This document shows, in pieces, positions 2,075 through 44,145 of a DNA stretch of 64,000 bases. The position numbers were made by a program, and so were the translations under genes. Position 1 is the stretch's first letter, and each line of letters begins with the position of its first letter. The stretch spans positions 170,620 through 234,619 of the forward strand of contig JAPLLX010000001.1 in the NCBI GenBank assembly GCA_026387335.1, given 5' to 3'. Source of the DNA: Candidatus Omnitrophota bacterium. Its GTDB lineage: Bacteria; Omnitrophota; Gorgyraeia; Gygaellales; Profunditerraquicolaceae. The notes beneath the pieces are model-generated. The model saw nothing but the letters and a program-made list of their open reading frames with translations, ran no database searches and had not been told where the DNA came from.

Positions 2075-2100
2075 ATAATCCTAACTTAAGGAGGTTTTTG

Positions 2101-2973: not shown

Positions 2974-3023
2974 CAGAAGTAGCATACCTAAAAGCAGGTA
3001 ATAATAAGAGAAGGGGAGGGGTA

Positions 3024-6361: not shown

Positions 6362-7594
6362 ATGGACCAACTTCTTCAAGAAATGGATTCAGGGAAGAGC
6401 AAGTATTGGCCATATATAGACAAAATATTGATTTCGTTCTTTCTGATAACTTATCTGTTTATCGTTGCAACATTCTTTCTGGGAAAGATGTTTGATTCTT
6501 TTTATAAGCCGTTTTGGACAGATGAAATTGTCGGACTAGGTACAGCTAGAGCTTATAGCTATATCCATATGTTGTTTAAGGGAGCATCTGGACAAGCCAG
6601 TCCAGCTCCTTTAGATTTTTTTGTGTGTAAAATACTGGACCAAATTAAGGAAAAGATCTCTTATTTTGGTTTTACTCCGGAAGTTTATTTTCGTTTATTT
6701 GCTAATGGAATTACAGCACTCAGTGTATTAGTAATAATGTTTGTGTTTAAAAACGAAATAGAAAATAACAAAAGTAATATTGCCCTTAAAGCAACGCAAT
6801 TATTTTTACTTTTATGCCTACCAATCGCTTATTTATTCCAACGGCAGGTTTATTACTATGCCGCTGAGACGAGGCCGTATGCTTTATGGAACTCACTTTT
6901 TATGATTGCGTTAGCTGTCAGTTTGCTGGAGGGAAAAAATAAAAAGTTTTTCTTTTTTTCATTAGTATTGCTTGCTTTTTCAGCTACGGCAGTAATTTTT
7001 CAGATCATCGCTGTAGCAGTTGCTTATTTTATAGCACAGCTAATAAATGAAGACAATTTTAAAAATATTTTCAAGAACGAAATTAAATTGTTAGCAGTGC
7101 CTTTTTTTATTGTTCTATATTATTGCTTGCAGGTCGAAAGTAGCAATGTGGTTTCTGTGGGTGGTACGTTCGGTGATTTTATAGAATTATGGAAGCACAA
7201 AGCAGTGACGATCCCTATTATGTTTTCAGCAATCGCCGTATGTTACCTGAAGAAGGAAAATAGAAAATATGCGCTAGCTGCGTTAACTTTTCTTATCCTT
7301 TTTCTAATGGGGCCGTTAATATTCTTGTTTACTCGGTTGAAAGGTTATTTTTACGCTGAAAGGCAGTTTATCTACTATGAATTAACAACAGCCGTTTTTA
7401 TCCTGACATTAATAAAATGCATCCCTGCTTACATAAAAAATGTTAAGTCAAGGTTCAGGGTGAATATTATTCTGATTATTTTTTGTTTAATCGGCGCTTC
7501 TTTTACTTTTAGGCCAAAACTAATTAAAAAATTTAATAGAACAGAGGCCAATGCGCTAAAGGTATTATTCACTGATTTTACTAATTCTAAATAA
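6362..7594 (+). CDS. polytopic membrane protein, GT-C-like
   Basis: At least 10 predicted TM helices. WTDEIVG motif is similar to 3024..4076. Confidence 0.5.
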   Translation: MDQLLQEMDSGKSKYWPYIDKILISFFLITYLFIVATFFLGKMFDSFYKPFWTDEIVGLGTARAYSYIHMLFKGASGQASPAPLDFFVCKILDQIKEKISYFGFTPEVYFRLFANGITALSVLVIMFVFKNEIENNKSNIALKATQLFLLLCLPIAYLFQRQVYYYAAETRPYALWNSLFMIALAVSLLEGKNKKFFFFSLVLLAFSATAVIFQIIAVAVAYFIAQLINEDNFKNIFKNEIKLLAVPFFIVLYYCLQVESSNVVSVGGTFGDFIELWKHKAVTIPIMFSAIAVCYLKKENRKYALAALTFLILFLMGPLIFLFTRLKGYFYAERQFIYYELTTAVFILTLIKCIPAYIKNVKSRFRVNIILIIFCLIGASFTFRPKLIKKFNRTEANALKVLFTDFTNSK

Positions 7595-9919: not shown

Positions 9920-11113
9920 TTGAAAGATGAATTCTATAATTTCTTCAAGTTTATTAGCGAGTACGCGTTATATGGTTTGTTATTTTTTTTGTCAATTTCA
10001 AACGCTTTGGTTGAGACTTTTGTAGGTTTGGCAGTTTTTGGTTTTGTCGGACGCAAAGCAATAAGGCCGGACTTTAAGTATCTTAAGTCCTTACCGAATT
10101 TATTTCTTCTACTGTTTTTATTTTTTAGCGCGCTTTCTTTGTTTAATAGCGGAGCGTATCTTAAAATAAGCCTGAACGCTTTACTTGGAAAGTGGATGCA
10201 ATATCTCGGAATTTGTATCATTATCCAAGATGGCATATATGACCAAAAAATAATTAGGCGTGGGGTGTTTATCTTTTTGCTTGGTGCCGCCTTAGTAGTT
10301 CTTTCTGGGTTAAGCCAGTATTTTTTTAACATTGAATTCTTGCGAAATAGAAGTATCGCAGTTTTAAGCAACGGCCTGCATGCCGCGACATCTTCTTTTA
10401 GCCACTACAATGCTTTTGGCGGGTATTTGGTAGTTGTTCTATCTCTTGTCTCCGCTTTATTGTTAGCGAATAATTATTCTCGCCTTAAAACTAACAGTTT
10501 ATCAGCTTTAGCCATCTTATCAACCACGGCAATTATTTTGACTTTTTCTCGCGGTAGCTGGTTAGCTATGTTTATTTCGTTTATTTTTATGACTATTCTT
10601 TCTGAGAGAAATCTTAAGCGGTTAATTCCTGTTTTTCTTGTGATTATTATTTTATTTCTATTCCCCATCTTCCATGAAAGGTTATTTCTTACTTTTAAGG
10701 CCGGCGGTGATAGCGATAGGTTTAGGTATTGGCTGGTAGCATGGAAAATGATTAATGAACATCCATTTTTTGGAATGGGCTTAGGGACGTTTATGGCCAA
10801 TTTCCCAAAATTTCTACCGACTGCAAATATTTCATATGCGCACAATTGTTATTTGCAGATTTGGGCTGAAACAGGTATTTTTGCCTTATTTAGTTTTGGG
10901 GGTTTTATAGTTTCAGTTGTTTATTTTGGTATTAAAAGGTTTATTGATTCCAAGGATTTTGTATTGCTCGGATTATTGTCCGGAGTCGTGGGCTTCTTGT
11001 TACATAGTTTTTTTGAAACGAATTTATATTCTTTACGCCTTGCTATTTTATTCTGGGTTTGGGTTGGCTTGATTATTGTGAGAACGCGAAATGAACAACT
11101 GCCAAAAACATAG
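9920..11113 (+). CDS. O-antigen ligase/Wzy-family membrane protein
   Basis: Polytopic, with the Wzy_C-like motif TFSRGSWLAM. TTG start is adjacent to the upstream stop. Confidence 0.65.
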   Translation: MKDEFYNFFKFISEYALYGLLFFLSISNALVETFVGLAVFGFVGRKAIRPDFKYLKSLPNLFLLLFLFFSALSLFNSGAYLKISLNALLGKWMQYLGICIIIQDGIYDQKIIRRGVFIFLLGAALVVLSGLSQYFFNIEFLRNRSIAVLSNGLHAATSSFSHYNAFGGYLVVVLSLVSALLLANNYSRLKTNSLSALAILSTTAIILTFSRGSWLAMFISFIFMTILSERNLKRLIPVFLVIIILFLFPIFHERLFLTFKAGGDSDRFRYWLVAWKMINEHPFFGMGLGTFMANFPKFLPTANISYAHNCYLQIWAETGIFALFSFGGFIVSVVYFGIKRFIDSKDFVLLGLLSGVVGFLLHSFFETNLYSLRLAILFWVWVGLIIVRTRNEQLPKT

Positions 11114-12401
11114 TTTAGGTATTAAGAGGTATTTTTATCAGCTGCTTTTTAGGTACCTGTCGGTATTTATCCGTCCTGATAATCCGGTAATTGAAATAAA
11201 CCCGGAATCATTCCCGGTAAGCGCTTATTTTAAGAATTCAAAACAGATTTCTTCGGATCAAGATTTGGGGCAATTATTAAATAAGACCCCCGAATATTTG
11301 ATTCTAAATGGGACCGTCCATTACGAAAGGGAGATTTTGTCCTATTTTCGTAAATTAAAAAGTTCTCTGAGCCCTAAAACTAGAGTAATTATTTTGTATT
11401 ATAGTAGTTTGTGGAAACCGCTAGCAAGGCTTGCTTCTTTTTTGGGGATACGTTCCAGGACGCCTGAACAAAATTGGGTTGACCACGATGATATCTTAAA
11501 TATTTTGTCGTTAGCTGATTTTGAGCCGGTACTTATTGATAGAAAGATTATCCTCCCTTTCTATATTCCCATATTAAGCAATTTAATTAATCGTTATTTA
11601 GCCCCGCTTCCATTAATTCGTTCTTTTTGCCTTGTAAATATACTTGTGGCTAGGCCGCTTATAAGAAGTAGAAGAAATGATCTATCTGTATCAGTCATTG
11701 TTCCCGCCAAGAATGAAGCTGGGAACATTGAGAATATAGTCAAAAGGTTGCCAAAGATGGGTTCGGCAGATGAAGTAGTTTTTGTTGAGGGACATTCTAA
11801 AGATAACACCTGGCAGGAAATTAAAAGGGTGGAAGAGGCATATGGTAAGGTTTTAAACATAAAATGCGTTAAGCAGGATGGGAAGGGTAAGGCCGATGCC
11901 GTAAGAAAGGGCTTTGAATGCGCCTCAAAGGATATCTTTATGATTTTAGACGCTGATTTATCTGTCGCTCCCGAAGCTCTCGAGGATTTTTATAAAGCCA
12001 TGTGTGAAGATAAAGCTGAGTTCTTAAACGGAAGCAGGCTGGTTTATCCTCACGATGGCAAGGCTATGCGATTTTGCAATATGGTTGGCAATAAATTCTT
12101 TGCGGCAGTTTTTTCTTTTCTTGTTGGACAGAGGTTTAAGGATACATTATGCGGTACAAAGGCTATCTCCGGAGAAAATTACAGGAAAATCGCCTTAAAT
12201 AGAAGTTTTTTTGGCGAATTTGACCCGTTTGGTGATTTTGATCTGATTTTAGGCGCAACGCGGCTTTGCCTTAAAATCCGGGAGATACCGGTGAGGTATT
12301 ATGAAAGGACCTACGGAAGTACTAATATAAACCGCTGGAGACACGGGTTTATTCTTTTGAAGATGGCTTTATTTTCGGCGAGGAAATTAAAGTTTATTTA
12401 A
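11091..12401 (+). CDS. glycosyltransferase family 2 with N-terminal extension
   Basis: SVSVIVPAKNEAGNIENIV ... ILDADLS ... GSRLVYP. Confidence 0.7.
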   Translation: MNNCQKHSLGIKRYFYQLLFRYLSVFIRPDNPVIEINPESFPVSAYFKNSKQISSDQDLGQLLNKTPEYLILNGTVHYEREILSYFRKLKSSLSPKTRVIILYYSSLWKPLARLASFLGIRSRTPEQNWVDHDDILNILSLADFEPVLIDRKIILPFYIPILSNLINRYLAPLPLIRSFCLVNILVARPLIRSRRNDLSVSVIVPAKNEAGNIENIVKRLPKMGSADEVVFVEGHSKDNTWQEIKRVEEAYGKVLNIKCVKQDGKGKADAVRKGFECASKDIFMILDADLSVAPEALEDFYKAMCEDKAEFLNGSRLVYPHDGKAMRFCNMVGNKFFAAVFSFLVGQRFKDTLCGTKAISGENYRKIALNRSFFGEFDPFGDFDLILGATRLCLKIREIPVRYYERTYGSTNINRWRHGFILLKMALFSARKLKFI

Positions 12402-12454
12402 ACAGTAGGTCATTATTAGCTAGTATATGAATGTCTAAGAAAAATATTTAGCCC

Positions 12455-13399
12455 ATGGATAAGAAGCGAATTTATCTTGTAACTGGTGCAAGCGGTTTCG
12501 TCGGCGCTTGCCTGGTGAGGAGACTGATTTCCAGGAATGAGATAGTTCATATCATTGTAAGAAATAATTCCAATCTTTGGAGGGTTAATGATATCCTTCG
12601 TAAGATTAATGTGCATATATGCGATTTAACGGAGTTTAATAAATTAGCAAGAATAATCCGTAAGACTAAACCGAATGTTATCTATCATTTAGCTACCTAT
12701 GGTGCGTATTCCAGTCAGAATGACACAGATTTGTGTATAGATACAAATGTTAATGGTACGCGTAATTTATTGAATGCTGCTTCAGCGGTCGACTATGAGT
12801 TATTTGTTAACACTGGGAGCTCGTCTGAGTATGGTTTTAAGAAAAAACCGATGAAGGAAACTGATTTACTTGAGCCGGCGAGTTACTATGCCGTAGCTAA
12901 GAGCGCGCAGACCCTCTTGTGTTCATATTTTGCAAAGGAGAATAGTAAGCCTATAGCTACGCTTAGATTGTTTTCTGCGTATGGGCCTTATGAGGGCGGT
13001 AGCAGGTTTATTCCTACGCTCCTGAAAGCTTTGTATAACGGTAAAAAAATGAATTTGGTCTCTCCAGAGATTTCTAGAGATTGGATTTATGTTGAGGATA
13101 TAGTAGACGCGTATTTAATGATAGATAAGCTTAAGAAATTTAAAGGGGAAATTTTTAATATTGGTACCGGGAGGCAGAAGAATATAGAGGAAGTAGTAGG
13201 GCTGTCTTCTAAGATAACCGGTAAGACTACGGTTTTTAATTGGCAGGGCATGAATAATAGGATCTGGGATACTGATTATTGGGTTGCTGATATGAGTAAA
13301 ACAAAGAAACTTTTAAAGTGGCGTCCGAAAGTAGATTTGAAAGAAGGGATTTTACTTACTTGGAGTTGGCTTAGGGATAATTTACATCTTTATGTTTAA
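12455..13399 (+). CDS. NAD-dependent epimerase/dehydratase (SDR); possible NDP-4-keto-deoxyhexose reductase
   Basis: VTGASGFVGACLVRRL Rossmann motif. Paralog of 23165..24118 (about 45% identity by eye). Confidence 0.7.
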   Translation: MDKKRIYLVTGASGFVGACLVRRLISRNEIVHIIVRNNSNLWRVNDILRKINVHICDLTEFNKLARIIRKTKPNVIYHLATYGAYSSQNDTDLCIDTNVNGTRNLLNAASAVDYELFVNTGSSSEYGFKKKPMKETDLLEPASYYAVAKSAQTLLCSYFAKENSKPIATLRLFSAYGPYEGGSRFIPTLLKALYNGKKMNLVSPEISRDWIYVEDIVDAYLMIDKLKKFKGEIFNIGTGRQKNIEEVVGLSSKITGKTTVFNWQGMNNRIWDTDYWVADMSKTKKLLKWRPKVDLKEGILLTWSWLRDNLHLYV

Positions 13400-14149
13400 T
13401 TGCTGAAAACCCAGCGCATTAAGAATATGAATACAGCAAAGCTTAATACTGGACAAAAGAGAACAAGAAGAAGGATAATTGAGATCAGCTATGAATCTAA
13501 ACTTGCTCATCTCGGATCTTGCTTAAGTGTTGTGGATATAATAGAGGCTATATATCTAATTAAAAAGCAGGATGAGCGTTTTATTCTCTCAGGAGGGCAT
13601 GCGGGAATAGCTTTGTATGTTATTTTAGAGAAGCACGGTTTTATTAAACCCGAAGTAATTCCTGCTCTTCATATCCATCCGGACAGAAACATTAATTTAG
13701 GCATAGATTTTTCAACGGGAAGCTTAGGCCAGGGGCTGCCTGTGGCGGTTGGGATGGCTTTGTCTAATAGAAATAGACGTATTTTTTGTGTAATTACCGA
13801 CGGAGAATGCGCGGAGGGAAGTATCTGGGAAGCTTTAAGGATAACATCTGAAAATAAAATATGCAATCTTATTACTATAGTTAACGCAAACGGATGGGGA
13901 GCGTATGATCCGGTTTCTTCCGTATCGCTTTTAAAGCGTATTAAGGCCTTTGGTTTAAATACGATAGAAGTAGACGGGCATAATATAAAGGGAATAACTG
14001 ATGTAATTGAGAAAGCCGTAAAGAATGGCCCTTCAGTGATTTTTGCAAAGACAAGCGTAGAGCAATTCAACTTTTTAAAAGGTCAGGATGCGCATTATTA
14101 TGTAATGGATGAAAATGATTATAAAAGCGCGATGGAGATTTTAAAGTGA
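13400..14149 (+). CDS. transketolase N-terminal (TPP-binding) subunit
   Basis: Split-transketolase N-terminal section motifs (SKLAHLGSCLSVVDIIEA, GSLGQGLPVAVGMA). TTG start at 13400; an alternative ATG at 13427 is possible. Confidence 0.7.
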   Translation: MLKTQRIKNMNTAKLNTGQKRTRRRIIEISYESKLAHLGSCLSVVDIIEAIYLIKKQDERFILSGGHAGIALYVILEKHGFIKPEVIPALHIHPDRNINLGIDFSTGSLGQGLPVAVGMALSNRNRRIFCVITDGECAEGSIWEALRITSENKICNLITIVNANGWGAYDPVSSVSLLKRIKAFGLNTIEVDGHNIKGITDVIEKAVKNGPSVIFAKTSVEQFNFLKGQDAHYYVMDENDYKSAMEILK

Positions 14150-14649
14150 ACGATAATTACTCAACCGTAAGAATGAGGAGATATTTTGTTGATATTTTAC
14201 ATAAGAAAATGTCGGAATATAGAGATATTTGGGTTGTAACCGGTGACCTGGGATATAAAATGTGGGATGAAATCAGGAGAGATTATCCGGGCCGGTTTAT
14301 AAACGTGGGAGCTGCTGAACAGGCTATGATAGGGGTTGGTATAGGGTTGGCCTTAGAAGGCAAGATTCCCTTTGTTTATTCAATATCCCCATTTCTTTTA
14401 TATAGGCCTTTTGAGACTATTAGAAATTACATAAACGAGGAAAAGATTCCGGTGAAATTAGTTGGTTCGGGAAGAGATAAGGATTATATTCATGACGGTT
14501 TCTCTCACTGGGCGCAGGAGGATAGAGATATAATGAAGATTTTGAATAATATAAACGCCAGATGGCCGGAAACTAATGAAGATTTACCCGAGATAATAAA
14601 TGAAATGATTAGAAGAAATTCCCCGTATTATTTAAACCTTAAGAAATAG
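14146..14649 (+). CDS. transketolase C-terminal subunit, pyrimidine-binding domain only
   Basis: Pyr-domain motifs (VGAAEQAMIGVGIGLALEGKIPFVYS). GTGA overlap with the upstream gene. It lacks the usual C-terminal domain. Confidence 0.65.
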   Translation: MNDNYSTVRMRRYFVDILHKKMSEYRDIWVVTGDLGYKMWDEIRRDYPGRFINVGAAEQAMIGVGIGLALEGKIPFVYSISPFLLYRPFETIRNYINEEKIPVKLVGSGRDKDYIHDGFSHWAQEDRDIMKILNNINARWPETNEDLPEIINEMIRRNSPYYLNLKK

Positions 14650-14665
14650 TTATTTAGGAGAAAAT

Positions 14666-15601
14666 ATGAAGAAAATTTCAGCAGTAGTAGCCTGTTATAA
14701 TGACGAAAGAGCCATTCCGCATATGCATAAGAGATTGACCGATGTTTTTAGGAAAATAGGGGTTAATTATGAAATAATATTTGTTAATGACGGTAGTCCT
14801 GATAATACGGAAGTTTTATTGCGTGATCTTGTAAGAAGCGACCCGCACACAATCGGAGTAAACCATTCCCGTAATTTTAATTCTCAGATGGCTTTTACAA
14901 GCGGTATGGATATCGCTAATGGTGATGCGGTAGTTCTGTTAGATGGGGACTTGCAGGATCCGCCGGAGATTATTGAGCAATTTTATAACAAGTGGCTGGA
15001 GGGTTACGATATTGTATACGGAGTGAGGGTGAAACGAGAGGCTCCCTTATTTATGCAAGTAGCATATAAACTATTTTATTACATTTTTCACAAACTTTCT
15101 TATGTGAAAATACCTCTAAACGTCGGAGACTTCTCACTCATGGATAAAAAGGTGATTGAGGTAATGAAATTATTTCCCGAGAGAGACAGGTTTCTTAGAG
15201 GCCTAAGGGCATGGACGGGTTTCCGAAATACAGGCATCCCGTATATCAGGCCGGAGAGGATGTTCGGTAGGACAACGAATAATATTTTCCGGAATTTAAA
15301 CTGGGCGACAAAAGGAATTTTCTCTTTTTCATACGTACCACTTGAATTAATGACATTTTTCTCTTTCTTTGTGTTTATTCTTGCCTTATCCGGAATAATT
15401 TTTCAGATTATCGCAAGAATTCTAGAGCCGAATATTCCGCATGGAATTACAACCGTATTAGTTGTCGTGTTATTTATTGGCGCTATTCAGTTACTGGGGA
15501 TAAGTGTATTAGGTCAATATATCGGTAGGATATTCGAAGAAGTGAAACAGAGGCCTAAGTATATTGTTAAGAGTGTATTCCGTAATGAAGGAAAAGTATG
15601 A
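14666..15601 (+). CDS. GT2 polyprenyl-phosphate glycosyltransferase (GtrB/ArnC/DPM1-like)
   Basis: GT2 core motifs plus two C-terminal TM helices. This is the typical GtrB architecture. Confidence 0.75.
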   Translation: MKKISAVVACYNDERAIPHMHKRLTDVFRKIGVNYEIIFVNDGSPDNTEVLLRDLVRSDPHTIGVNHSRNFNSQMAFTSGMDIANGDAVVLLDGDLQDPPEIIEQFYNKWLEGYDIVYGVRVKREAPLFMQVAYKLFYYIFHKLSYVKIPLNVGDFSLMDKKVIEVMKLFPERDRFLRGLRAWTGFRNTGIPYIRPERMFGRTTNNIFRNLNWATKGIFSFSYVPLELMTFFSFFVFILALSGIIFQIIARILEPNIPHGITTVLVVVLFIGAIQLLGISVLGQYIGRIFEEVKQRPKYIVKSVFRNEGKV

Positions 15602-17679
15602 TTAATCTGATAGTAGTGAATGCAATCGTAATCTTTAGCTCTTGGATAATTGCAAGAAAGTATTTTGGCGTGCGTTTATTTAGTGAATTAATTTTAGTTT
15701 GGTTTATATTGTTCTTTGCTCAAATAGTCTTAGTTGAGATGATATTGGGAATTTTCAATCTGCTCTTTTTTAAGAATGTCTTTTCCGTACACCTGTTAAT
15801 TCTTATATTTATATTGTTGATAAGCCGCAAGAGAAGAATTGCCGAGTTTTTAAAACCTGATTTAGAATTTTTTGTAAATAGCAAATTGCTTTTTTTTGCC
15901 TTCTCTGTATTTGCAGCATTTTTCTTAGTGAGAATAGTTATTAATTTAATGACACCGGCTGTGTTCCCTGACGGATTGCAAATCTATTTATCTTTTCCTG
16001 CAACTTGGATTAAAAGCGGAAATTTGGATAATCCGGTAAATATATTCGGAGCATCGCCTATATTAAACGCAAAATTCTTGCAAACCAGTGCGACTTCTTA
16101 TTATCCTATTAATGGCCAGCTATTCTTTGCCTGGCTTATGTTGCCATTAAGAAGTTCATTCTTAGCAAATATTGGGCAGGCCCCATTTTACATAACAGGT
16201 ATAGCAGTTTTTTATTCAATATTAAGGAAATATGATTTAAATAGAACGATTGCCCTCTTAAGCGGCTTTCTTTGGGCCCTTATCCCTAATATTTTTAAAC
16301 AATTTAGGAATGGCGCTCAAATTGACATCATTTGTTCAGTCTTGGTGCTTTTGTTTTTTTACACAATTTTATTGCTTAAACTGAATTTTACTTTTAAGAA
16401 CGTAATCTTGTTTGGTATATCGGCGGGGCTTTTAATTGGAACTAAGGTTATTAATATTGTATGGTTTGCTGCTTTTCTACCTTTTACCTGTTATGTGTTA
16501 TTTAATGGGATAAAGGAAAACAAGCTTACAATGAGCAAGGTATTAAATTTTACAGGAGTCATTGCTTTAATGGTTATTTTATTCGGTGGTTTCATATATA
16601 TAAAAAATTATATTTTTACTGGTAACCCTCTGTTTCCTGTGAGCTTAAAAGTTTTCGGTGTCACTATCTTTAATGGTTTGCTTGATAACGCCGCATATGG
16701 AATGCAAATTGCCAGCGGAGATAAATTTGATTTAATGAGAATAATTTTTAAAGAAGGTTTAGGTGCGCAATTTTTAGTTTTAGTTTTACCCGGTTTGTTT
16801 CTGCCGGTAGTATTTTTTGCGTATTTAAGAAGAAAGTGCCAGCCTTTTGGAGAGTACGTGCTGATTTTTATCACACCGCTTATAATGTTTTTCTTATATT
16901 ACTTTCTTGTTAATGTGTACGTAGTCAGGTATCTTTTTCCGTTTATAAGTATGGGGTTGATAACTGCCGTTATTTTTATAAGCAGGTTACCTCGCGGAGA
17001 GAGATATTTGACATTGGTTTCATTTATAGCAATTTTTGTTTCAGCTTCCGAATTAGCTCATAGATATGAACTTATTACTTCGCTTTTGCTTTCTTTGATA
17101 TTCTTTATAGCATTAGTAGCATATAAAAAACAATTCATTTCATTTTATAAGAGCAAAGCATTTACTAAGAAGATGATTATTTTATTATCCGTGGTGTTAA
17201 TATTTCTAGGTTACCTAAATGAAAAATATAATAAAGAGGCATATGACCGCTATCCTCTAAGTTTCAGCAAGAAGGAAGCATCGCAGAGAGATATAGCTAG
17301 AGGTTGGAAGGCTCTCAATGACTTAACCGGGCCAGGCGCGCGAGTTGCTTATACCGGCAGGCAGGAGTTTTACCCTTTATTCGGCACGCGGCTTAAGAAT
17401 TATGTAGTCTATGTGTCTATTAATGAAAAAGAAGTTTCTCCTTATAATGAATTTGATGGGTTATTCCGGCAAACCAAGGATTTCCTTGCCTGGAGGATAA
17501 ATTTAAAGAGAGAAAAAATTGAGTATTTATTTATAGCGCATCCATTTTTTAATAGCCGTGAATCGGAAGATCCTGCTAAATTTCCAGTTGAAGATGAATG
17601 GGCTGTTGCGCATCCCGAAGATTTTAAGCTTTTATACAATAATTCATTAGCTCATATATATAAAATTTTAATTAAATAA
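15598..17679 (+). CDS. large polytopic membrane protein, GT-C-like partner of the GtrB-like GT2
   Basis: 693 aa with many TM helices followed by a soluble C-terminal domain. ATGA overlap with the upstream GtrB-like gene. Confidence 0.55.
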   Translation: MINLIVVNAIVIFSSWIIARKYFGVRLFSELILVWFILFFAQIVLVEMILGIFNLLFFKNVFSVHLLILIFILLISRKRRIAEFLKPDLEFFVNSKLLFFAFSVFAAFFLVRIVINLMTPAVFPDGLQIYLSFPATWIKSGNLDNPVNIFGASPILNAKFLQTSATSYYPINGQLFFAWLMLPLRSSFLANIGQAPFYITGIAVFYSILRKYDLNRTIALLSGFLWALIPNIFKQFRNGAQIDIICSVLVLLFFYTILLLKLNFTFKNVILFGISAGLLIGTKVINIVWFAAFLPFTCYVLFNGIKENKLTMSKVLNFTGVIALMVILFGGFIYIKNYIFTGNPLFPVSLKVFGVTIFNGLLDNAAYGMQIASGDKFDLMRIIFKEGLGAQFLVLVLPGLFLPVVFFAYLRRKCQPFGEYVLIFITPLIMFFLYYFLVNVYVVRYLFPFISMGLITAVIFISRLPRGERYLTLVSFIAIFVSASELAHRYELITSLLLSLIFFIALVAYKKQFISFYKSKAFTKKMIILLSVVLIFLGYLNEKYNKEAYDRYPLSFSKKEASQRDIARGWKALNDLTGPGARVAYTGRQEFYPLFGTRLKNYVVYVSINEKEVSPYNEFDGLFRQTKDFLAWRINLKREKIEYLFIAHPFFNSRESEDPAKFPVEDEWAVAHPEDFKLLYNNSLAHIYKILIK

Positions 17680-19076
17680 TGAAAATAGCGCTTGTATATC
17701 CACCGTCCCAGGAATTAAACCTTAAGGGGTATCCTTTAGGGCTGGCATACCTATCGGCCTCTTTAAAAAGAAAACATAAGGTGGATGTATATGATTATAA
17801 TGGCAGGGAGTTTAAGAAGAGCTTGAATTTGTTTTTTAATTCTGTCAGACAATCTAAGCCTGATTTAGTGTCAGTTTCTTTTAATTCCTTTAACCGCTGG
17901 GCTGCGTATAAAATAATTAATAAGGTTAAAAATATCAATAAGGATATTATTGTTGTTTTGGGAGGGGTTCATCCCTCTACAATGTATACCCAGATTTTTC
18001 AAAATTTCTTTGATGATATTGATTTTATTATTCAGTCAGAAGGCGAGAGCTCACTGTATAAGTTATGCAGTGCTTTAGAAACAGGATCAGATTACAAAGA
18101 AATAAGCGGATTAGTTTATAAAGACGGTGACAAAACTTTTAAAGCAAATCCTGTTACCCAGATTGCCGCTAATCTTGATGATTTACCTCTTCCGGATTAT
18201 TCATATGCTTCTCAAAGGATAATGGAGAGCGGGTCCGCGTATCTTATTACTTCCCGGGGATGCCCGGTTAACTGTTCTTTTTGCTCAACTTCTTCTTTTT
18301 GGGGACAGAACGTTAGGATGAATTCTCCGGAAAGAGTGGGAGAGGAAGTGGATTATGTAAAAAGTTTAGGCGCCAAGAGAATCTTTTTTCATGATGATAC
18401 TTTTAATCTCGGGATTGAGAGGACCATTAAGCTGGCCGAGATACTGAAAAATAAGAAAATTGAATATGCTGTTTCTTGCCGGGTAAAGCCCGTGAATGAA
18501 GAAATGGTCGCCAGATTAGTTGAGTCTGGCTGCAGGCATATAACCTGGGGGGTAGAGAGCCTATCCGATAAGATATTGCAGACAATTGATAAGAAGATTA
18601 CTAAAGAAGAAGCGAAGAATGCTTTTGATATCTGCTCTAAATATACTGATAGATTGACTACCAGCGGATTTTTCTGTGTCGGAATCCCGGGTGAAGCTGA
18701 AGAAACAATCAATGAAACAGTTGATTATTTGAATAAATTTATCAAGTCTACCCATGGGCCGGGAGCGTCTATGCTCTATATTTTGCCTGGGACAAAGATT
18801 TACAGGGAGTTGGTTAAGTCTGGGGAGTTTGACGAAAGCATATGGATAAAGACCAATTCAGTTTATTATTATACTGAAGAACATAGTATGAAGGTTTTAA
18901 ATAGATGGAGGAAGAGAGTCAATTCTAGTGGGATAAGGTTGCCATCCAACCTTAAATATTTTTGGGATTATGCCTTGGTTAATAAGGAAGATAATGCGGG
19001 CAGGTTAAGAAAAGCGCTTCGTAAGAATGTCAGGAAAATAACCAGATTTATAAATATGCTGCGCAACAGATACTAG
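17679..19076 (+). CDS. cobalamin-binding radical SAM protein (third paralog)
   Basis: TSRGCPVNCSFCS CxxxCxxC motif. N-terminal B12-binding-like region. Confidence 0.75.
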   Translation: MKIALVYPPSQELNLKGYPLGLAYLSASLKRKHKVDVYDYNGREFKKSLNLFFNSVRQSKPDLVSVSFNSFNRWAAYKIINKVKNINKDIIVVLGGVHPSTMYTQIFQNFFDDIDFIIQSEGESSLYKLCSALETGSDYKEISGLVYKDGDKTFKANPVTQIAANLDDLPLPDYSYASQRIMESGSAYLITSRGCPVNCSFCSTSSFWGQNVRMNSPERVGEEVDYVKSLGAKRIFFHDDTFNLGIERTIKLAEILKNKKIEYAVSCRVKPVNEEMVARLVESGCRHITWGVESLSDKILQTIDKKITKEEAKNAFDICSKYTDRLTTSGFFCVGIPGEAEETINETVDYLNKFIKSTHGPGASMLYILPGTKIYRELVKSGEFDESIWIKTNSVYYYTEEHSMKVLNRWRKRVNSSGIRLPSNLKYFWDYALVNKEDNAGRLRKALRKNVRKITRFINMLRNRY

Positions 19077-19104
19077 GCGTTTATAATAGAAAGAAAGGTT
19101 TGGA

Positions 19105-20139
19105 ATGAGAGAAAGTGTGTTAAAATTATTAAGATGTCCGGCCTGCAAAAGCAACTTATTGTCCTTACGCAAAGAAACCGTCAATGAGATTGAGACTAGA
19201 ACCGGCAGGATTGTGTGTAATAATTGCAGCGCAGATTATAAGATTGAAGATGGGATAATTAATTTTCTCCATAATGCCAATGAGGGAGTTTTGCGTGAAA
19301 GAAAGGCTATGGATGACGATGAGTACATTGTTGATGAAAGTGGCATTAAATATAGAATATCAAATGAAACGATAGAAAAGTTTAAAGATAAATTTCTTGC
19401 TTTGCCCGAAGGAGATGGTTCGTATTTCTTCAAGGCTAACGGAAGTTTTCAGACCACTGCCGAAGCATCAGGTAGATTTTATTCCGCATTAGCGGACCTA
19501 AACCTTAGCGGAAAGGAAAGTGTATTAGAGGTAGGCTCATGTTTTTCTTACGCCTCTTTTAATTTTGCTAAAAAAGGATGTAGTGTAGTCGCTACGGATA
19601 TAAGCAACTACTTAAAGGCCTCTAACCTTTTTATAAAGCAGGCGTATTTTGAAAGAATATTTTCGGATATGCACTATATACCATTTATGGATAATTCATT
19701 TGACATTGTGTTTGGTTCAGCGATTCTTCATCACAGTAAAGACTTGAAAAAAGTTTTTAGCGAGATATACAGGGTTTTAAAGCCAGGAGGCAGGCTTTTT
19801 GTGATTAACGAAGCATGTAGAGGGGTTTTAGAAAAAGTCCATCCAGTTTTTAAGAAAATGGAAGAAAAAGGTTTCGCGGACACCTCTTATACTATTCCGC
19901 AATTTATTAAGGGAGCCAAAGCCGGTGGTTTTAGAAAGGTAAAGGCTATATTTTCGTCCTTAGCCGATGATTATATCTTGAGGCGTAAAAACAGGAATCC
20001 TGACGAGCGCACCTTTAAGCTGGAATTAGCTAACTTTTTTAAGAAACACAGAAGATTAGAGCGTTTAGTATCTTTTTTTATGATACTGCCGAGATTATTA
20101 TTCAGGCCGAAAAGCTGGAAGCTTATTTGCTATAAATAA
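19105..20139 (+). CDS. SAM-dependent methyltransferase with N-terminal Trm112-like zinc ribbon
   Basis: CPACKSN ... CNNCSADYKIEDGIINF, then the MTase motif VLEVGSCFSYASFNFAKKGCSVVATDIS. Confidence 0.7.
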   Translation: MRESVLKLLRCPACKSNLLSLRKETVNEIETRTGRIVCNNCSADYKIEDGIINFLHNANEGVLRERKAMDDDEYIVDESGIKYRISNETIEKFKDKFLALPEGDGSYFFKANGSFQTTAEASGRFYSALADLNLSGKESVLEVGSCFSYASFNFAKKGCSVVATDISNYLKASNLFIKQAYFERIFSDMHYIPFMDNSFDIVFGSAILHHSKDLKKVFSEIYRVLKPGGRLFVINEACRGVLEKVHPVFKKMEEKGFADTSYTIPQFIKGAKAGGFRKVKAIFSSLADDYILRRKNRNPDERTFKLELANFFKKHRRLERLVSFFMILPRLLFRPKSWKLICYK

Positions 20140-20161
20140 TAATCAGAAAACGGAGAGATAA

Positions 20162-21409
20162 ATGACTTTGCGCGAGAAGATTTTAGTTGTATGTGAGAAG
20201 ATGATTTATTGGGGGATAATCCTTATACCGTTTGTGGTAAGTTTCTCTTCAGCCGCGGTAAATATCTTTATCGGTTTTGTAATTGTAGGATTCTTGGCTA
20301 AGAGGATAATCTTACGGGATCGCTCGTTCATTAAAACTCCCGTAAGTATCCCGTTTCTTTTGCTTATCGCAATCGCGTTGGTTTCCTTTATAAATTCAGT
20401 GAATATAAAATCCAGTATCCAAGGCATTGAAAAACTACTTAAATACGGCTTTTTGTTTCTGATTATGGTTGCGGAAATTAAAGATAAAAAACATGTTCAA
20501 AGGATAGTCGTAGCTATTATTGCCGGTTTGTTCCTGGCCTCAGCGGATGGTTTTTACTCGCTTATTTTCGGTAAAGATCTGTTTAACGGAGAGCCTCCGC
20601 AGTTTGTAATCGGTTTATCCCGGATAAGGGCAGCTTTTCCGCATACAAATATCTTCGGTGGCTATCTTACATTGTTTTTGGCGCTTCCCATATCATTAGC
20701 GCTGTATTATTTAAAAGGCCGTAAAAAGGTATTAGTAAGCATAGTCTCAGCTTTTGTGCTTTACGCCTTGATTTATACGTTTTCACGCAGCGCCATTTTG
20801 GGGGCATGGGTGGCAGTGCTTTTTATGGCATTAATAAAAAAGGATAAAATTATCCTTTTATTACTTCTATTATCGGTTATTTTATTGCCAATACTTATCC
20901 CGCGAAATATCGCGAATTGGGCAAGTAAGCAGGCATCTGTCTGGCAGATTGTTTTTGACGATACAAGGCTTAGTATATACCGGACATCTTTAAATATGAT
21001 TCAACATCACCCTATGATAGGGGTAGGGGTAAATACCTACTGCCTTAATTTCCAAAAGTATAAAGTGTATGAGAGCGAAGATTATACCGGCGATACCCAA
21101 TGGTACGCTCACAATATTTATTTGCATATGGCAGGTGAAATAGGCTTAACCGGATTGTTAATATTCATTTGGTTGCTTTTCATAGTTTTTAAGTATTGGG
21201 CTTATTTTTACCGTAGGGTTAACGGCGATGAATTCCTTAAGACTTGCAGTTTGGGTATTACCGCTGGCCTTGTAGCATTCCTTATTAACGGAATGACTGA
21301 AACAAATCTGTATTATTCTAAGATCGCGACATTTTTCTGGTTTCAAATCGGTTTATTACTGGCAATCATTAAATTAAAAAGAGGTGATTATGAAAAACGA
21401 AAAAATTAA
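20162..21409 (+). CDS. O-antigen ligase/Wzy-family membrane protein (second copy)
   Basis: Polytopic, with TFSRSAILGAW. RBS GGAGAG upstream. Confidence 0.65.
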   Translation: MTLREKILVVCEKMIYWGIILIPFVVSFSSAAVNIFIGFVIVGFLAKRIILRDRSFIKTPVSIPFLLLIAIALVSFINSVNIKSSIQGIEKLLKYGFLFLIMVAEIKDKKHVQRIVVAIIAGLFLASADGFYSLIFGKDLFNGEPPQFVIGLSRIRAAFPHTNIFGGYLTLFLALPISLALYYLKGRKKVLVSIVSAFVLYALIYTFSRSAILGAWVAVLFMALIKKDKIILLLLLLSVILLPILIPRNIANWASKQASVWQIVFDDTRLSIYRTSLNMIQHHPMIGVGVNTYCLNFQKYKVYESEDYTGDTQWYAHNIYLHMAGEIGLTGLLIFIWLLFIVFKYWAYFYRRVNGDEFLKTCSLGITAGLVAFLINGMTETNLYYSKIATFFWFQIGLLLAIIKLKRGDYEKRKN

Positions 21410-22187
21410 GGTAGTTATTTTATGCGGCGGCAGAGGAACGCGTTTAAGAGAAGAGACTGAGATAAGGCCGAAACCGTTGGTAGAAATCGGCAGTAGACCG
21501 ATTTTGTGGCATATCATGAAGACTTATTCTCATTATGGTTTTAAGGATTTTGTGTTATGCCTGGGGTATAAAGGCGACCTTATTAAAGATTATTTCTTAA
21601 ACTATGAAGCAATGAATAACGATTTTACCATTAATTTAGGCAACCGCAGTAATGTTATCTTTCATAATTCACATCTTGAAAAAGATTGGAACGTAACCCT
21701 GGTAAATACGGGAGCTCATGCGCAGACAGGTGCCCGGATAAAAAGAATTGAAGAGTATATTGACAGCGAAACTTTTATGGTTACATATGGAGACGGGGTT
21801 GGCGATATAAATATTAAGGAATTGCTCGAGTTTCATAGAGAAAATAAGAGTATTGGCACATTGACGGGTGTTCATCCATCTTCGCGATTTGGCGAGCTTT
21901 TGGTGAAAGGAAAGAATATTGTTGAATTTAATGAAAAGCCCCTGGTAAGTCAGGGTTTTATAAACGGAGGGTTTTTCATATTTAATAGAGAATTATTTCA
22001 TTATTTAAGTAATGAAGATAAATGTACGCTTGAACATGAGCCGCTAGGAAAGCTATCTAGAGATGGAAAACTTTCTGTTTATAAGCATGATGGTTTTTGG
22101 CAGTGTATGGATACTCAGCGTGAGCTTGACATATTGAATGATCTCTGGAAGCAAGGAAAGGCCCCTTGGAAGATTTGGAAGGATTAA
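21390..22187 (+). CDS. rfbF: glucose-1-phosphate cytidylyltransferase
   Basis: KVVILCGGRGTRLREETEIRPKPLVEIGSRPILWHIMKTYSHYGF is the canonical RfbF/DdhA signature. ATG 21390 is preceded by AGAGGTG. Confidence 0.9.
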   Translation: MKNEKIKVVILCGGRGTRLREETEIRPKPLVEIGSRPILWHIMKTYSHYGFKDFVLCLGYKGDLIKDYFLNYEAMNNDFTINLGNRSNVIFHNSHLEKDWNVTLVNTGAHAQTGARIKRIEEYIDSETFMVTYGDGVGDINIKELLEFHRENKSIGTLTGVHPSSRFGELLVKGKNIVEFNEKPLVSQGFINGGFFIFNRELFHYLSNEDKCTLEHEPLGKLSRDGKLSVYKHDGFWQCMDTQRELDILNDLWKQGKAPWKIWKD

Positions 22188-22190
22188 TAT

Positions 22191-23165
22191 ATGCCTAAGA
22201 GTTTTTGGAAAAATAAGAAGGTTTTGGTTACAGGTTATGAAGGGTTTCTTGGATCTTGGTTAGCAAAGACTTTAGTCGAGTTAGGCTCAAGGGTAGTCGG
22301 TATCGATATAATCAAAGACAGGCCACATTCAGTGTTGGAAGGCTACAGGAAAAGACTGGTTTCTATAAAGGCAGATGTATCAAATTTAAGCTTAGTCCGA
22401 AAAACGGTAATTGAGCATAGGCCCTCTGTAATCTTTCATCTTGCGGCAGAGGCTATAGTTGGACGCGCAAACATAGATCCAGTTAGGGCTTTTAAATCAA
22501 ACATTGAGGGGACTTGGAATATACTGGAGGCTTCAAGGGGTATGAAATTTATTGATTCGATAGTTGTAGCTTCCAGCGATAAAGCTTACGGCCCACATAG
22601 AGACCTGCCTTATTATGAAGATACAACAGCTTTAAAAGGCGATCATCCTTATGATGTTTCCAAAAGTTGCGCTGATCTTCTGTGCAATGCTTATTTTGTT
22701 TCTTTTAAATTGCCTGTATGTGTTACCAGATGCGGTAATATATACGGTCCGGGAGATAACAATTTCTCCAGGCTTATGCCGGATTTATTCAGGTCAATCG
22801 CAAGAAACAAAACCTTTATGATAAGGAGTGATGGAGCATTTACGCGCGATTATATTTATGTTGAGGATGTAATCAGTGGTTATATTTTACTCGGTGAGAA
22901 GATGAAGAGTAAGAATTTAGCTGGCCAGTCGTTTAATCTAAGTAACGAGAAGCCATTATCGGTAATTTCGATGGTTAAAACTGTTTATAAGCTGGCAGGT
23001 AAAAAGCCAAACTATAAAATACTTAATTCAACTTGCAATGAAATAAAAGACCAATATTTATGCTCATCAAAAGCAAAACGGATTCTTAGCTGGAAAGCAA
23101 GATACGAGTTATCCAAAGGATTAAACAAGGCAATGGGTTACTATATGAACAGGTTTAGCAGATAA
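22191..23165 (+). CDS. rfbG: CDP-glucose 4,6-dehydratase
   Basis: FWKNKKVLVTGYEGFLGSWL is the N-terminal signature of RfbG/DdhB. Confidence 0.85.
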   Translation: MPKSFWKNKKVLVTGYEGFLGSWLAKTLVELGSRVVGIDIIKDRPHSVLEGYRKRLVSIKADVSNLSLVRKTVIEHRPSVIFHLAAEAIVGRANIDPVRAFKSNIEGTWNILEASRGMKFIDSIVVASSDKAYGPHRDLPYYEDTTALKGDHPYDVSKSCADLLCNAYFVSFKLPVCVTRCGNIYGPGDNNFSRLMPDLFRSIARNKTFMIRSDGAFTRDYIYVEDVISGYILLGEKMKSKNLAGQSFNLSNEKPLSVISMVKTVYKLAGKKPNYKILNSTCNEIKDQYLCSSKAKRILSWKARYELSKGLNKAMGYYMNRFSR

Positions 23166-24118
23166 TGAATATAAATGGAAAAAACATTCTTATAACAGGT
23201 GCAACTGGTTTTGTTGGTGCCAATCTCGTCCGGTATTTTATAAATAAAAAAGCAAGGGTTAACATTTTTAAGAGAAAACAATCAGAATTATGGAGAATCA
23301 ATGATATAAAAAACAAATTTTTTTCGCACGATGTTAATCTTTTAAACCATGCGGATGTTAAGAGGGCAGTAAAAATAATTAAGCCGGAAGTAGTAATTCA
23401 TACCGCAACTTATGGCGGGCACGTAACCCAGCGAAATATTCCGCTTATCTTTAAGACTAATTTTGATGCAACGATAAATCTCTTAGATTCTTCCCTTAAG
23501 TCAGGAGCCGGTATTTTTATTAACACAGGATCAAGTTCAGAATATGGCCTCAAAAATTGCCCTATGAAGGAAACGGATGTGCTTAAGCCTATAACACCTT
23601 ACGGAGCTTCCAAGGCACTGGCGACAATTTATTGTCAATACGCGGCTAAGAAATTCAGTGTGCCTGTCGTAACGCTAAGATTATTTTCTCCGTATGGTTA
23701 TTATGATGACGTAAACAGGGCAGTTAGCTATTTGATTTTATCATGCCTCAGGAAAACTCCGCTGAATATTAAATCTCCTGATTCCGTAAGGGATTTTGTA
23801 TTTATTGAAGATGTAATAGAATCTTACGGGAATGTTTTAAGGAATAGTAGTAATTTATCCGGGGAAATATTTAATATAGGCTCGGGCAAGCAGTACTCTA
23901 TAAAATATTTGGCGGAGAAGATTGCGAGATTAACCGGTATGAATGCGCAGCTATCTTTCCAGAAGAAGAATAAAACTCTGATGACTGAGCCAAAAACCTG
24001 GGTAGCTGATTGCTCTTTATCTTTTAAGGAACTCGGCTGGAGTCCTAAATTTAATATTGAGGGCGGACTTAAGAAAACAATAAATTGGTTTAGGAGCAAT
24101 ATTGGTTTGTATTCTTAG
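23165..24118 (+). CDS. SDR epimerase/dehydratase-family protein; candidate CDP-sugar 4-reductase (YerF/RfbS-like)
   Basis: ILITGATGFVGANLVRYF; paralog of 12455..13399. It sits between rfbG and the YerE-like gene. Confidence 0.65.
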   Translation: MNINGKNILITGATGFVGANLVRYFINKKARVNIFKRKQSELWRINDIKNKFFSHDVNLLNHADVKRAVKIIKPEVVIHTATYGGHVTQRNIPLIFKTNFDATINLLDSSLKSGAGIFINTGSSSEYGLKNCPMKETDVLKPITPYGASKALATIYCQYAAKKFSVPVVTLRLFSPYGYYDDVNRAVSYLILSCLRKTPLNIKSPDSVRDFVFIEDVIESYGNVLRNSSNLSGEIFNIGSGKQYSIKYLAEKIARLTGMNAQLSFQKKNKTLMTEPKTWVADCSLSFKELGWSPKFNIEGGLKKTINWFRSNIGLYS

Positions 24119-24121
24119 CAT

Positions 24122-27874: not shown

Positions 27875-27883
27875 GATAAAATA

Positions 27884-31921: not shown

Positions 31922-31947
31922 TTAACAGTTTTGTTAACTAACTATAC
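31912..31947. promoter_or_regulatory. perfect 16-bp inverted repeat (36-bp palindrome) GTATAGTTAGTTAACA-gttt-TGTTAACTAACTATAC; candidate autoregulatory operator or terminator
   Basis: Read directly. It overlaps the -10 and ends 4 nt before the ATG at 31952. Confidence 0.7.
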
Positions 31948-31951
31948 TCAG

Positions 31952-44144: not shown

Positions 44145-44145
44145 A

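Follow-up and report, generated by a model that had tools for sequence, protein, structure and literature searches.

A two-subunit minimal transketolase beside a reductase in a surface-glycan locus of an Omnitrophota bacterium, with relatives in other phyla and in phages

We analysed a 64,000-nucleotide (nt) stretch of DNA, hereafter the window, from a Candidatus Omnitrophota bacterium (assembly GCA_026387335.1, contig JAPLLX010000001.1, positions 170,620 to 234,619 of the forward strand), and within it a gene for a short-chain dehydrogenase/reductase (SDR) followed by two genes that together encode a small transketolase. These genes are the first three of one tightly packed five-gene module at 12455-17679, which continues with a GtrB-type glycosyltransferase and a predicted glycosyltransferase of the GT-C fold and which very probably has a dedicated glycan function. 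Taken as a whole, its best explanation is that the transketolase attaches a two-carbon (C2) branch to a keto sugar, the SDR reduces that branch, the GtrB-type enzyme loads the sugar onto a lipid carrier and the GT-C enzyme transfers it, a sequence of events to which we give slightly less than an even chance. The module consists of:

12455..13399, + strand: SDR, 314 amino acids (aa) (Pfam Epimerase, 1.4e-48)
13427..14149, + strand: TK-N, the transketolase PP-domain subunit that binds the diphosphate of thiamine diphosphate (ThDP), 240 aa (Pfam Transketolase_N, DXP_synthase_N)
14146..14649, + strand: TK-Pyr, a transketolase subunit with the Pyr domain only, 167 aa (Pfam Transket_pyr)
14666..15601, + strand: GtrB-type polyprenyl-phosphate glycosyltransferase, 311 aa, the fourth gene of the cassette described below (PDB 5ekp match)
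15598..17679, + strand: predicted GT-C-fold glycosyltransferase, 693 aa, polytopic, with a C-terminal soluble domain (fold from a model)

A first-pass annotation made from the sequence had described the first three open reading frames (ORFs), on the + strand, as a unit ending at 14649. The ORFs are present as claimed and the grouping of the SDR with the transketolase pair stands; the proposed end does not, in that the GtrB-type and GT-C-fold genes continue the unit. The GtrB-type gene begins 16 nt 3' of TK-Pyr, and the gene for the 693-aa protein overlaps its end. From 12455 to 20139 neighbouring genes either overlap or are separated by at most 29 nt, which suggests that they form a single operon.

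The same annotation proposed a split transketolase whose second subunit, of 167 aa, has a Pyr domain and no C-terminal domain, and both Pfam and the alignment to a solved relative bear this out. The Pfam scan finds Transket_pyr in TK-Pyr (4.3e-17, profile positions 3-168 of 174) and no other domain. In the Carboxydothermus split transketolase, the C-chain is 341 aa long, and TK-Pyr matches its first half only, residues 49-191 (6yaj, 1e-16). Among the ORFs of the locus there is none for a transketolase C-terminal domain 3' of TK-Pyr. The GTG start of TK-Pyr (14146) overlaps the stop codon of TK-N; an alternative ATG at 14173 would give a protein of 158 aa, and most relatives align from residue 10. 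For TK-N, the ORF can be read from a TTG at 13400 (13400-14149; Transketolase_N 1.7e-16, DXP_synthase_N 1.2e-12); because its homologues are 240 aa long and begin at the equivalent of ATG 13427, this TTG is probably not the start. The best solved relative of TK-N is the N chain of the Carboxydothermus enzyme (6yak, 5.7e-28). Together the two chains, which we call the mini-TK, presumably form an alpha2beta2 ThDP enzyme.

Curated family models score this enzyme low. Among the NCBIfam transketolase models NF004559 scores highest, with 159 bits for TK-N and 53 bits for TK-Pyr at a cutoff of 488, and the DXS model TIGR00204 gives 40 and 29 bits with a cutoff of 466. An exhaustive HMMER search placed TK-Pyr in a family of 35 Pyr-only clusters (at 50% identity) at E<=1e-30, all of them short, with full-length members of about 155-175 aa; ordinary C subunits of ~300 aa turn up only below that level. 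We considered and rejected a two-subunit enzyme of the sulfopyruvate or phosphonopyruvate decarboxylase kind, for which the matches to the ThDP motif were faint (E 0.002-0.008) and no phosphoenolpyruvate mutase gene lies nearby.

We compared the active-site residues with those of canonical transketolase, using a numbering that follows the E. coli TktA sequence and was checked against the known motifs of TktA, and judging invariance over 25 family members. TktA residues H26, H66, H100, D155, N185 and H261 correspond to H28, H58, H84, D125, N155 and H223 of TK-N, all of which are invariant. TK-Pyr retains R11 (R358 in TktA), E58 (E411), D117 (D469) and H121 (H473), and the family-invariant positions include these four TktA residues and F437. 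Two of the four phosphate ligands R358, S385, H461 and R520 are replaced: S385 by K38 (K or R in the family) and H461 by G109. TK-Pyr terminates at the equivalent of R520, which is K167 (K or R in the family). All four ligands are retained in a split transketolase with the canonical residue pattern, presumed to be a housekeeping enzyme (locus L066), and S385 and H461 are lost too in the full-length split transketolases of glycan loci (L063-L065 and L069). In addition, R110 of TK-Pyr, which is invariant, lines up with the 'DRAG' arginine of DXS. The mini-TK therefore has the features of the transketolase superfamily, namely the GDG...N motif for ThDP and Mg, the catalytic histidines and the Pyr-domain equivalents of E411, D469 and H473, and lacks three features of the canonical enzyme (EC 2.2.1.1): the C-terminal domain, the full set of phosphate ligands and a score at the level of the curated family. 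Because the ThDP-binding and catalytic residues are all kept and two phosphate ligands are replaced, the mini-TK looks catalytically competent, with a substrate entrance unlike that of pentose-phosphate transketolases.

As had been proposed, the SDR at 12455..13399 is a paralogue of the SDR at 23165..24118 (39% identity over 308 residues, E 4e-79); the dehydratase-like SDR at 22191-23165 is more distant from it, at 28% identity. Each of the two paralogues directly precedes a ThDP enzyme, the split transketolase here and an acetolactate synthase (ALS)-like enzyme at 24122-25915 there. The SDR at 12455..13399 carries the GxxGxxG, catalytic GSSSEYG and YxxxK motifs and has a basic rather than an acidic residue after strand beta2 (IVRNN...WR). 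Its orthologues in other loci form a clade that has GSSSEYG and YxxxK and in which an arginine or lysine, never an acidic residue, follows beta2, unlike the dehydratases and epimerases of the same loci, which have aspartate there. By the standard cofactor rule for SDRs, arginine or lysine in place of this aspartate indicates a dissociable NADPH-dependent reductase and speaks against tightly bound NAD+. We also placed 81 SDRs from all loci in a neighbour-joining tree. The SDR at 23165-24118, the neighbour of the YerE-like enzyme, groups there with the cassette SDRs, inside their clade or at its base, and it is 36-40% identical to members of that clade and at most 28% identical to other SDRs. 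The NADPH-type motif and the clade shared by the two proteins agree with the earlier expectation of a YerF-like reductase. Transmembrane (TM) prediction finds no membrane segment in the SDR or in the transketolase proteins.

The module recurs in part in many other genomes. Metagenomes hold thousands of TK-N relatives of ~240 aa. A scan of cellular genomes, in which each GTDB species was represented by a single genome, gave 80 loci, without exception from metagenome-assembled genomes (MAGs), with matches at most 62% identical among the species representatives and from taxa that include Patescibacteria/Microgenomates, Omnitrophota, Gammaproteobacteria, Elusimicrobia, Planctomycetota and Actinomycetota. 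Counts refer to a core set of 47 non-redundant loci whose TK-N is a close match, scoring at least 200 bits. Of these, 44 encode the short Pyr subunit and 40 an orthologue of the SDR; a GtrB orthologue (about 48-85% identical) lies beside the transketolase pair, again in 40. The SDR, TK-N, short TK-Pyr and GtrB genes are a conserved, portable cassette found across phyla. The gene order of the SDR and the transketolase pair recurs in more than 120 other loci, cellular and viral, which, together with the E-values, rules out chance. A class I methyltransferase with a zinc ribbon is a frequent fifth member, an orthologue of which was not found in the window, and large proteins with multiple TM segments are often encoded 3' of GtrB, one cluster of which matches the GT-C-related family PF10131. 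The closest cassette (L001), 77-86% identical protein by protein, adjoins RmlA, RmlD and RmlB genes. The GT-C homologue, RfbH and Wzy that apparently come from the same organism are only 43-61% identical to those of the window, and the cassette is therefore better conserved than its surroundings. Searches by tblastn of PLSDB plasmids and GenBank phages for cultured carriers gave ordinary transketolases only, at no more than 38% identity.

Phages carry a smaller version of the cassette. We give viral counts for the best 80 of 162 IMG/VR contigs (L087-L166), with transketolase relatives at 40-52% identity. All 80 encode TK-N with the short Pyr subunit and 72 encode an SDR of the same family, which in 50 ends at most 900 nt upstream of TK-N; the cassette-type GtrB is found in none of the 80. 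In L089 and L094, the two contigs checked and confirmed as phage, a large terminase gene starts within ~1 kb downstream of the Pyr subunit, and in L089 a small terminase gene lies between the Pyr subunit and the large terminase, with the major head protein encoded further on. The operon in L089 (4160-10935) comprises genes for a GmhA-like SIS protein, a GHMP kinase, a nucleotidyltransferase, the SDR, TK-N and TK-Pyr. Two contigs assigned to MAGs (L046, 'uncultured archaeon', and L048, 'Cloacimonas') have a large terminase beside the mini-TK, and L048 also has a major capsid gene; both are probably phage contigs that were binned wrongly. No such mini-TK gene was found in phage genomes deposited in GenBank. 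The invariant unit is the SDR plus the mini-TK. The association of the short transketolase pair with an SDR in 40 of 47 cellular and 72 of 80 viral loci accords with the earlier claim of a second, dedicated ThDP system in this locus.

In the window, the two genes that follow the transketolase pair point towards a lipid carrier. The GtrB-type protein (14666-15601) matches Synechocystis GtrB over residues 4-305 (5ekp, 5.4e-79) and ArnC at 3e-41 in PDB searches, and has a GT2 catalytic domain followed by two C-terminal TM helices. The 693-aa protein has no Pfam or NCBIfam match and about 12 or more TM segments. Its AlphaFold model, built with 30 homologues, has a pLDDT of 84.5 and a pTM of 0.88, and the top 23 Foldseek matches in the PDB are all GT-C proteins (STT3/PglB, ArnT, PMT, Emb, AftA) at a probability of 0.9-1.0, with a TM-score of up to 0.5 to ArnT. 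On the strength of this model we predict a GT-C-fold glycosyltransferase, presumed to use a lipid-linked sugar. In all three contexts examined, the GT-C homologue is encoded directly 3' of a GT2 gene, the product of which is ~310 aa long and GtrB-like in two (L084 and L085) and fused to a nucleotidyltransferase in the third. Because GtrB-type and GT-C-fold genes follow the transketolase pair, the product of the module most likely leaves a lipid carrier for its target outside the cytoplasm and is not built into a repeat unit by a cytoplasmic transferase; we consider the lipid-carrier route probable for this window.

The surroundings of mini-TK relatives suggest what the acceptor may be. Relatives adjoin genes for NDP-hexose 4,6-dehydratases and RfbH-like 3-dehydrases, which make nucleoside diphosphate (NDP)-linked 4-keto sugars. 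An operon of a marine sister clade, for example, encodes a glycosyltransferase, a GT2 protein, TK-N, TK-Pyr, a glycosyltransferase, an RmlD-like SDR, an RfbH-like dehydrase 40% identical to the RfbH of the window and a 4,6-dehydratase. Members of the RfbH/DegT family are encoded near the transketolase in 23 of the 80 viral and 8 of the 47 cellular loci. The first ThDP system of the window, at 21384-27194, is itself a yersiniose-like CDP-glucose/RfbH cluster around the ALS-like ThDP enzyme. In related Omnitrophota, a block with an HpcH aldolase, a YerE-like ThDP enzyme, an SDR and RfbH precedes the GtrB-like and GT-C genes (L084:645-6317 and L085:1-5534), and in L085 it also includes a DmpG/HMGL-like aldolase; this block suggests an erwiniose- or caryophyllose-like pathway and long-chain C-branched sugars in Omnitrophota. 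The slot before GtrB and GT-C is thus taken by a YerE-type pathway in these relatives and by the SDR and transketolase in the window, which we read as a functional replacement. Related arrangements with a longer transketolase subunit are found in L065 (YerE-like enzyme, SDR, TK-N, long TK-C and GT2, with a YfhO-like protein further downstream) and L070 (SDR, radical SAM (rSAM) enzyme, TK-N, long TK-C, a GtrB 52% identical to that of the window and a YfhO-like protein). All these contexts point to NDP-4-keto-deoxy sugars as acceptors and to delivery by a lipid carrier. A general dependence of the cassette on the CDP-3,6-dideoxyhexose pathway was rejected, as RfbF/RfbG are encoded near it in 2 of the 47 loci, RfbH in 2 and a YerE-like enzyme in 3.

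From these observations we infer a mechanism; the inference extends to all of its chemistry, to the sequence of events and to the identity of donor, acceptor and final structure. The mini-TK would form a C2 carbanion bound to ThDP, either dihydroxyethyl-ThDP, with a ketose phosphate or hydroxypyruvate as the donor, or hydroxyethyl-ThDP, with pyruvate as the donor, and would add this C2 unit to the carbonyl of an NDP-4-keto-(3,)6-deoxy sugar. The acceptor would come from a 4,6-dehydratase pathway encoded elsewhere, for which the CDP pathway at 21384-27194 is a candidate in the window. The resulting sugar would carry a glycolyl or acetyl branch at C-4, and the SDR would reduce the new side-chain ketone with NADPH, as YerF does after YerE. 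The GtrB-type enzyme would then load the finished sugar onto undecaprenyl phosphate and, after flipping, the GT-C enzyme would add it to the surface glycan outside the cytoplasm. The C-C branching chemistry taken on its own is, in our judgement, close to evenly balanced.

Several observations weigh against this mechanism. The catalytic residues are all canonical, and ordinary transketolase chemistry on sugar phosphates is possible; it is also possible that pyruvate is the donor, as in DXS. No enzyme that makes a keto acceptor is encoded in the cassette or, for most loci, anywhere within 10 kb of it. Genes for NDP-heptose synthesis (GmhA, HddA, HddC, GmhB-like), counted by jackhmmer, accompany the transketolase in 2 of the 47 cellular and 6-7 of the 80 viral loci. 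On the side of delivery, there is no flippase of the GtrA or ArnEF type and no small membrane ORF on the + strand of 11000-29600. Known examples of characterised GtrB-type enzymes use UDP-sugars, and the adjacent pathways are of the CDP, dTDP or GDP type. In the closest relative, the GT-C homologue is absent within 10 kb either side of the cassette and instead follows a different GtrB-like gene, in a YerE-type block. Finally, branching of sugars by enzymes of the transketolase type is a proposal only, with no in vitro demonstration, and this includes the cases of miharamycin and amipurimycin (PMC12247030).

The branching mechanism can be taken further, to a reading that we hold as tentative and on balance doubtful: the SDR and mini-TK would be a self-contained mobile branching unit, of a kind not known from any organism, that adds glycolaldehyde to C-4 of a common NDP-4-keto-6-deoxy sugar, with reduction by the SDR to a 4-C-(1,2-dihydroxyethyl) sugar. 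Bacteria of Patescibacteria, Omnitrophota and other phyla would add GtrB and GT-C to decorate the envelope, and tailed phages would carry the bare unit next to the terminase, divert a host sugar nucleotide and thereby alter the host surface. A rather unlikely alternative is that the mini-TK supplies precursors by ordinary transketolase chemistry, for example sedoheptulose-7-phosphate for NDP-heptose, with the SDR tailoring an NDP-sugar that GtrB loads. The canonical catalytic residues and the counterpart of R358 are all kept, the residue that takes the place of R520 is basic, the phage operon of L089 has the genes for a GmhA-like SIS protein, a GHMP kinase and a nucleotidyltransferase before the SDR and transketolase, and heptose-pathway genes adjoin the cassette in L032 and L033, so that precursor supply fits those loci; the window itself encodes a GmhB-like HAD phosphatase and two GT9 heptosyltransferases. 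However, heptose genes are confined to the minority of loci just counted, whereas the SDR is nearly always adjacent; the many phage loci with SDR and transketolase only are left unexplained; S385 and H461 are replaced although canonical transketolases, including that of L066, keep both; and GmhA and HddA were not found in the window. We rejected sedoheptulose-7-phosphate supply as the general role of the module, since by co-occurrence it fits a minority of loci, and kept it as a rival.

A reading of comparably low probability keeps the branching and changes the donor: pyruvate would be decarboxylated as in DXS and a hydroxyethyl group transferred, giving an acetyl and then a 1-hydroxyethyl branch, and hence a sugar of the yersiniose type on another scaffold. 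The characterised ThDP enzymes that branch sugars all take 2-keto acids (PMC12247030). TK-N matches DXP_synthase_N (1.2e-12), its relatives bear the NCBI name 'DXP synthase N-terminal domain-containing protein', and R110 has its counterpart in the 'DRAG' arginine. Against this, the transketolase model scores 159 bits and the DXS model 40, the best solved relatives are transketolases, and the equivalents of H26, H100 and H261, which in transketolase hold the C1 hydroxyl of the ketol donor, are invariant, although this last point does not discriminate strongly. It is improbable that the SDR and mini-TK act after GtrB, on a sugar already linked to polyprenyl phosphate at the membrane, in the manner of DprE1/DprE2 or ArnD. 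The cassette contains no source of an NDP-keto sugar, and GtrB is its most conserved member (up to 85% identical) and closest to the GtrB that uses UDP-glucose; yet in those viral and marine sister-clade loci that were examined the SDR and mini-TK have no cassette-type GtrB with them, neither has a membrane segment, and extended SDRs with a C-terminal substrate domain typically have nucleotide sugars as substrates. Least probable by far is a housekeeping pentose-phosphate transketolase that lies in a glycan locus by accident. Membership of the transketolase family and intact catalytic residues would fit such an enzyme, but synteny with the SDR and GtrB is kept in dozens of loci across phyla, the enzyme has no C-terminal domain, other residues stand in for two phosphate ligands and the score is 159 bits against a cutoff of 488. 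Since the SDR and mini-TK also travel together in phages, we reject a housekeeping role.

The proposed branching and delivery have precedents in part. ThDP-dependent branching followed by NAD(P)H-dependent reduction of the new side chain is the established scheme of YerE/YerF and ErwE/ErwF (PMC9306805). Like these systems, the module combines a ThDP enzyme with an adjacent extended SDR in a surface-glycan locus with genes for CDP-4-keto-3,6-dideoxyhexose nearby, and the SDR that accompanies the YerE-like enzyme of the window groups with the cassette SDR clade. Unlike YerE, which belongs to the ALS/decarboxylase group (TPP_enzyme_N/M/C), the mini-TK is of the transketolase superfamily, with PP then Pyr domains on two chains and no middle domain of the FAD type, and unlike YerE and ErwE the cassette has no associated aldolase that forms a 2-keto acid and is coupled to a GtrB-type transferase. 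Split-gene transketolases have been proposed to attach hydroxyacetyl branches in the miharamycin and amipurimycin clusters and in 13 further Streptomyces clusters (PMC12247030). Compared by description, these resemble the mini-TK as two-gene transketolases proposed to put a C2 ketol on a keto sugar; they differ in that they lie in nucleoside-antibiotic clusters of actinomycetes, whereas the transketolase of the window is found in surface-glycan loci and phages of other phyla, has no C-terminal domain and is linked to GtrB and GT-C. With the Carboxydothermus hydrogenoformans split transketolase (6yak/6yaj) and the human and E. coli enzymes the mini-TK shares the PP and Pyr domains and the cofactor and catalytic residues, but its second subunit is half as long, S385 and H461 are replaced, identity is about 30% or less, and in the loci examined it never occurs in a pentose-phosphate context. 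It resembles DXS in domain order, weak matches to the DXS model and the conserved DRAG-aligned arginine; DXS, however, is a single chain with a C-terminal domain, and the mini-TK has two chains, scores 40 against 466 bits and has no isoprenoid-pathway context.

For delivery, the parallels are GtrA/GtrB/GtrC, ArnC/ArnT and CsbB/YfhO, in which a GtrB/ArnC-like transferase is likewise followed by an enzyme of the GT-C fold, and the Arn pathway, where soluble enzymes modify the sugar ahead of its transfer to the carrier, as we propose here. The module departs from the Gtr and Arn systems in having no flippase gene of the GtrA/ArnEF type and in its proposed tailoring by a C-C bond-forming ThDP enzyme and a reductase, a combination that no paper in the library searched reports for such systems. 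As we read it, the system works like YerE/YerF with delivery of the Arn or Gtr type, yet is a member of neither. Within the literature library searched, no paper was found to link a transketolase to GtrB, YfhO or GT-C systems, and none on transketolases together with polyprenyl carriers, O-antigen or Patescibacteria describes the cassette. The gene content of the window has a parallel in Campylobacter fetus 82-40, a cultured pathogen: in a recombining region (CFF8240_1582-1612), genes for two transketolase subunits accompany several radical SAM genes, a methyltransferase gene and genes for glycosyltransferases (PMC5013579).

The ThDP enzymes known to put C-branches on sugars are ALS-like (YerE) or E1-like; for transketolases such branching has only been proposed, in a few antibiotic clusters of Streptomyces. 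The family described here is large and uncharacterised, with at least 35 Pyr-only clusters (50% identity), hundreds of loci and 162 viral contigs. It goes almost throughout with a single reductase family and is often connected to a lipid-carrier glycosylation route. If the proposed function is correct, it would represent a new class of sugar-branching enzyme that makes a new surface sugar in bacteria of candidate phyla, and the C-terminal domain of transketolase would be dispensable. The phage copies would provide an auxiliary function that acts on host sugar nucleotides, and the enzyme would offer biocatalysis a minimal transketolase, ~400 residues in total, that may accept ketones.

Downstream of the module, the same strand continues with:

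17679-19076, + strand: B12-binding radical SAM enzyme (Pfam)
19105-20139, + strand: class I methyltransferase with a Trm112-like zinc ribbon (Pfam)
21384-22187, + strand: glucose-1-phosphate cytidylyltransferase, RfbF (NCBIfam TIGR02623, 344 bits, above cutoff)
22191-23165, + strand: CDP-glucose 4,6-dehydratase-like SDR, RfbG (TIGR02622, 207 bits, below the 278-bit cutoff)
23165-24118, + strand: second SDR, the paralogue of 12455-13399 (Pfam)
24122-25915, + strand: ALS/YerE-like ThDP enzyme (acolac_lg, 510 bits, just under cutoff; Pfam)
25878-27194, + strand: RfbH/E1 3-dehydrase (NF011936, 683 bits)
27191-27874 and 27884-28447, + strand: tandem GT2 paralogues, 54% identical (Pfam)
28444-29562, + strand: GT-C protein of the PMT_2 family (Pfam)

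The radical SAM enzyme and the methyltransferase (17679..20139) are probably further tailoring enzymes. Because an orthologue of the radical SAM enzyme, 64-75% identical, follows that of the GT-C homologue in L085 and L086, both of which are without the transketolase, we assign the two genes to the GT-C block and not to the transketolase cassette. B12-binding radical SAM genes also recur near the cassette elsewhere, and in L055 one sits between TK-N and TK-Pyr. In the window there are three B12-binding radical SAM paralogues (671-2074, 4899-6359 and 17679-19076), 25-31% identical and each near a class I methyltransferase gene, which suggests that they methylate unactivated carbons on sugars. 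For the RfbH of the first ThDP system, no E3 partner (an AscD-type [2Fe-2S] flavin reductase) was found among the ORFs of at least 150 aa in the window, and none is visible in L084 or L085.

Further pairs of a GT2 protein and a PMT_2-type GT-C protein are encoded at 2068-4076 and 27191-29562. A GT2 protein of the 27191-28447 region has a weak match to the Dol-P-Man synthase 5mlz (2.7e-8) that spans the whole catalytic domain, and a 55%-identical GT2 protein follows RfbH in L084. The genes at 27191-29562 come immediately after the yersiniose-like pathway and may form another module for glycosylation from a lipid carrier, the second in the window; in all, the window may hold three lipid-carrier side-chain modules.

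Other features of the locus include two paralogues of the Wzy_C family, similar to O-antigen ligases and polymerases (9920-11113 and 20162-21409, 28% identical), the second of which has orthologues at the same relative position in L084-L086. A 410-aa protein with ~9 TM segments and no Pfam or NCBIfam match is encoded at 6362-7594, between a radical SAM gene and a WecG/TagA-type transferase gene, and could be a flippase or polymerase. A NodU/CmcH-type carbamoyltransferase gene (29559-31016), with homologues near the cassette in L032, L038 and L016, suggests an O-carbamoylated sugar. An AbiEi/AbiEii type IV toxin-antitoxin pair (31931-33191) lies between the genes for a GT9 heptosyltransferase and a ManC-type protein, and two tandem GalT/HIT-like nucleotidyltransferase paralogues, 50% identical, are encoded at 43119-45147 between fmt and a GAPDH gene.

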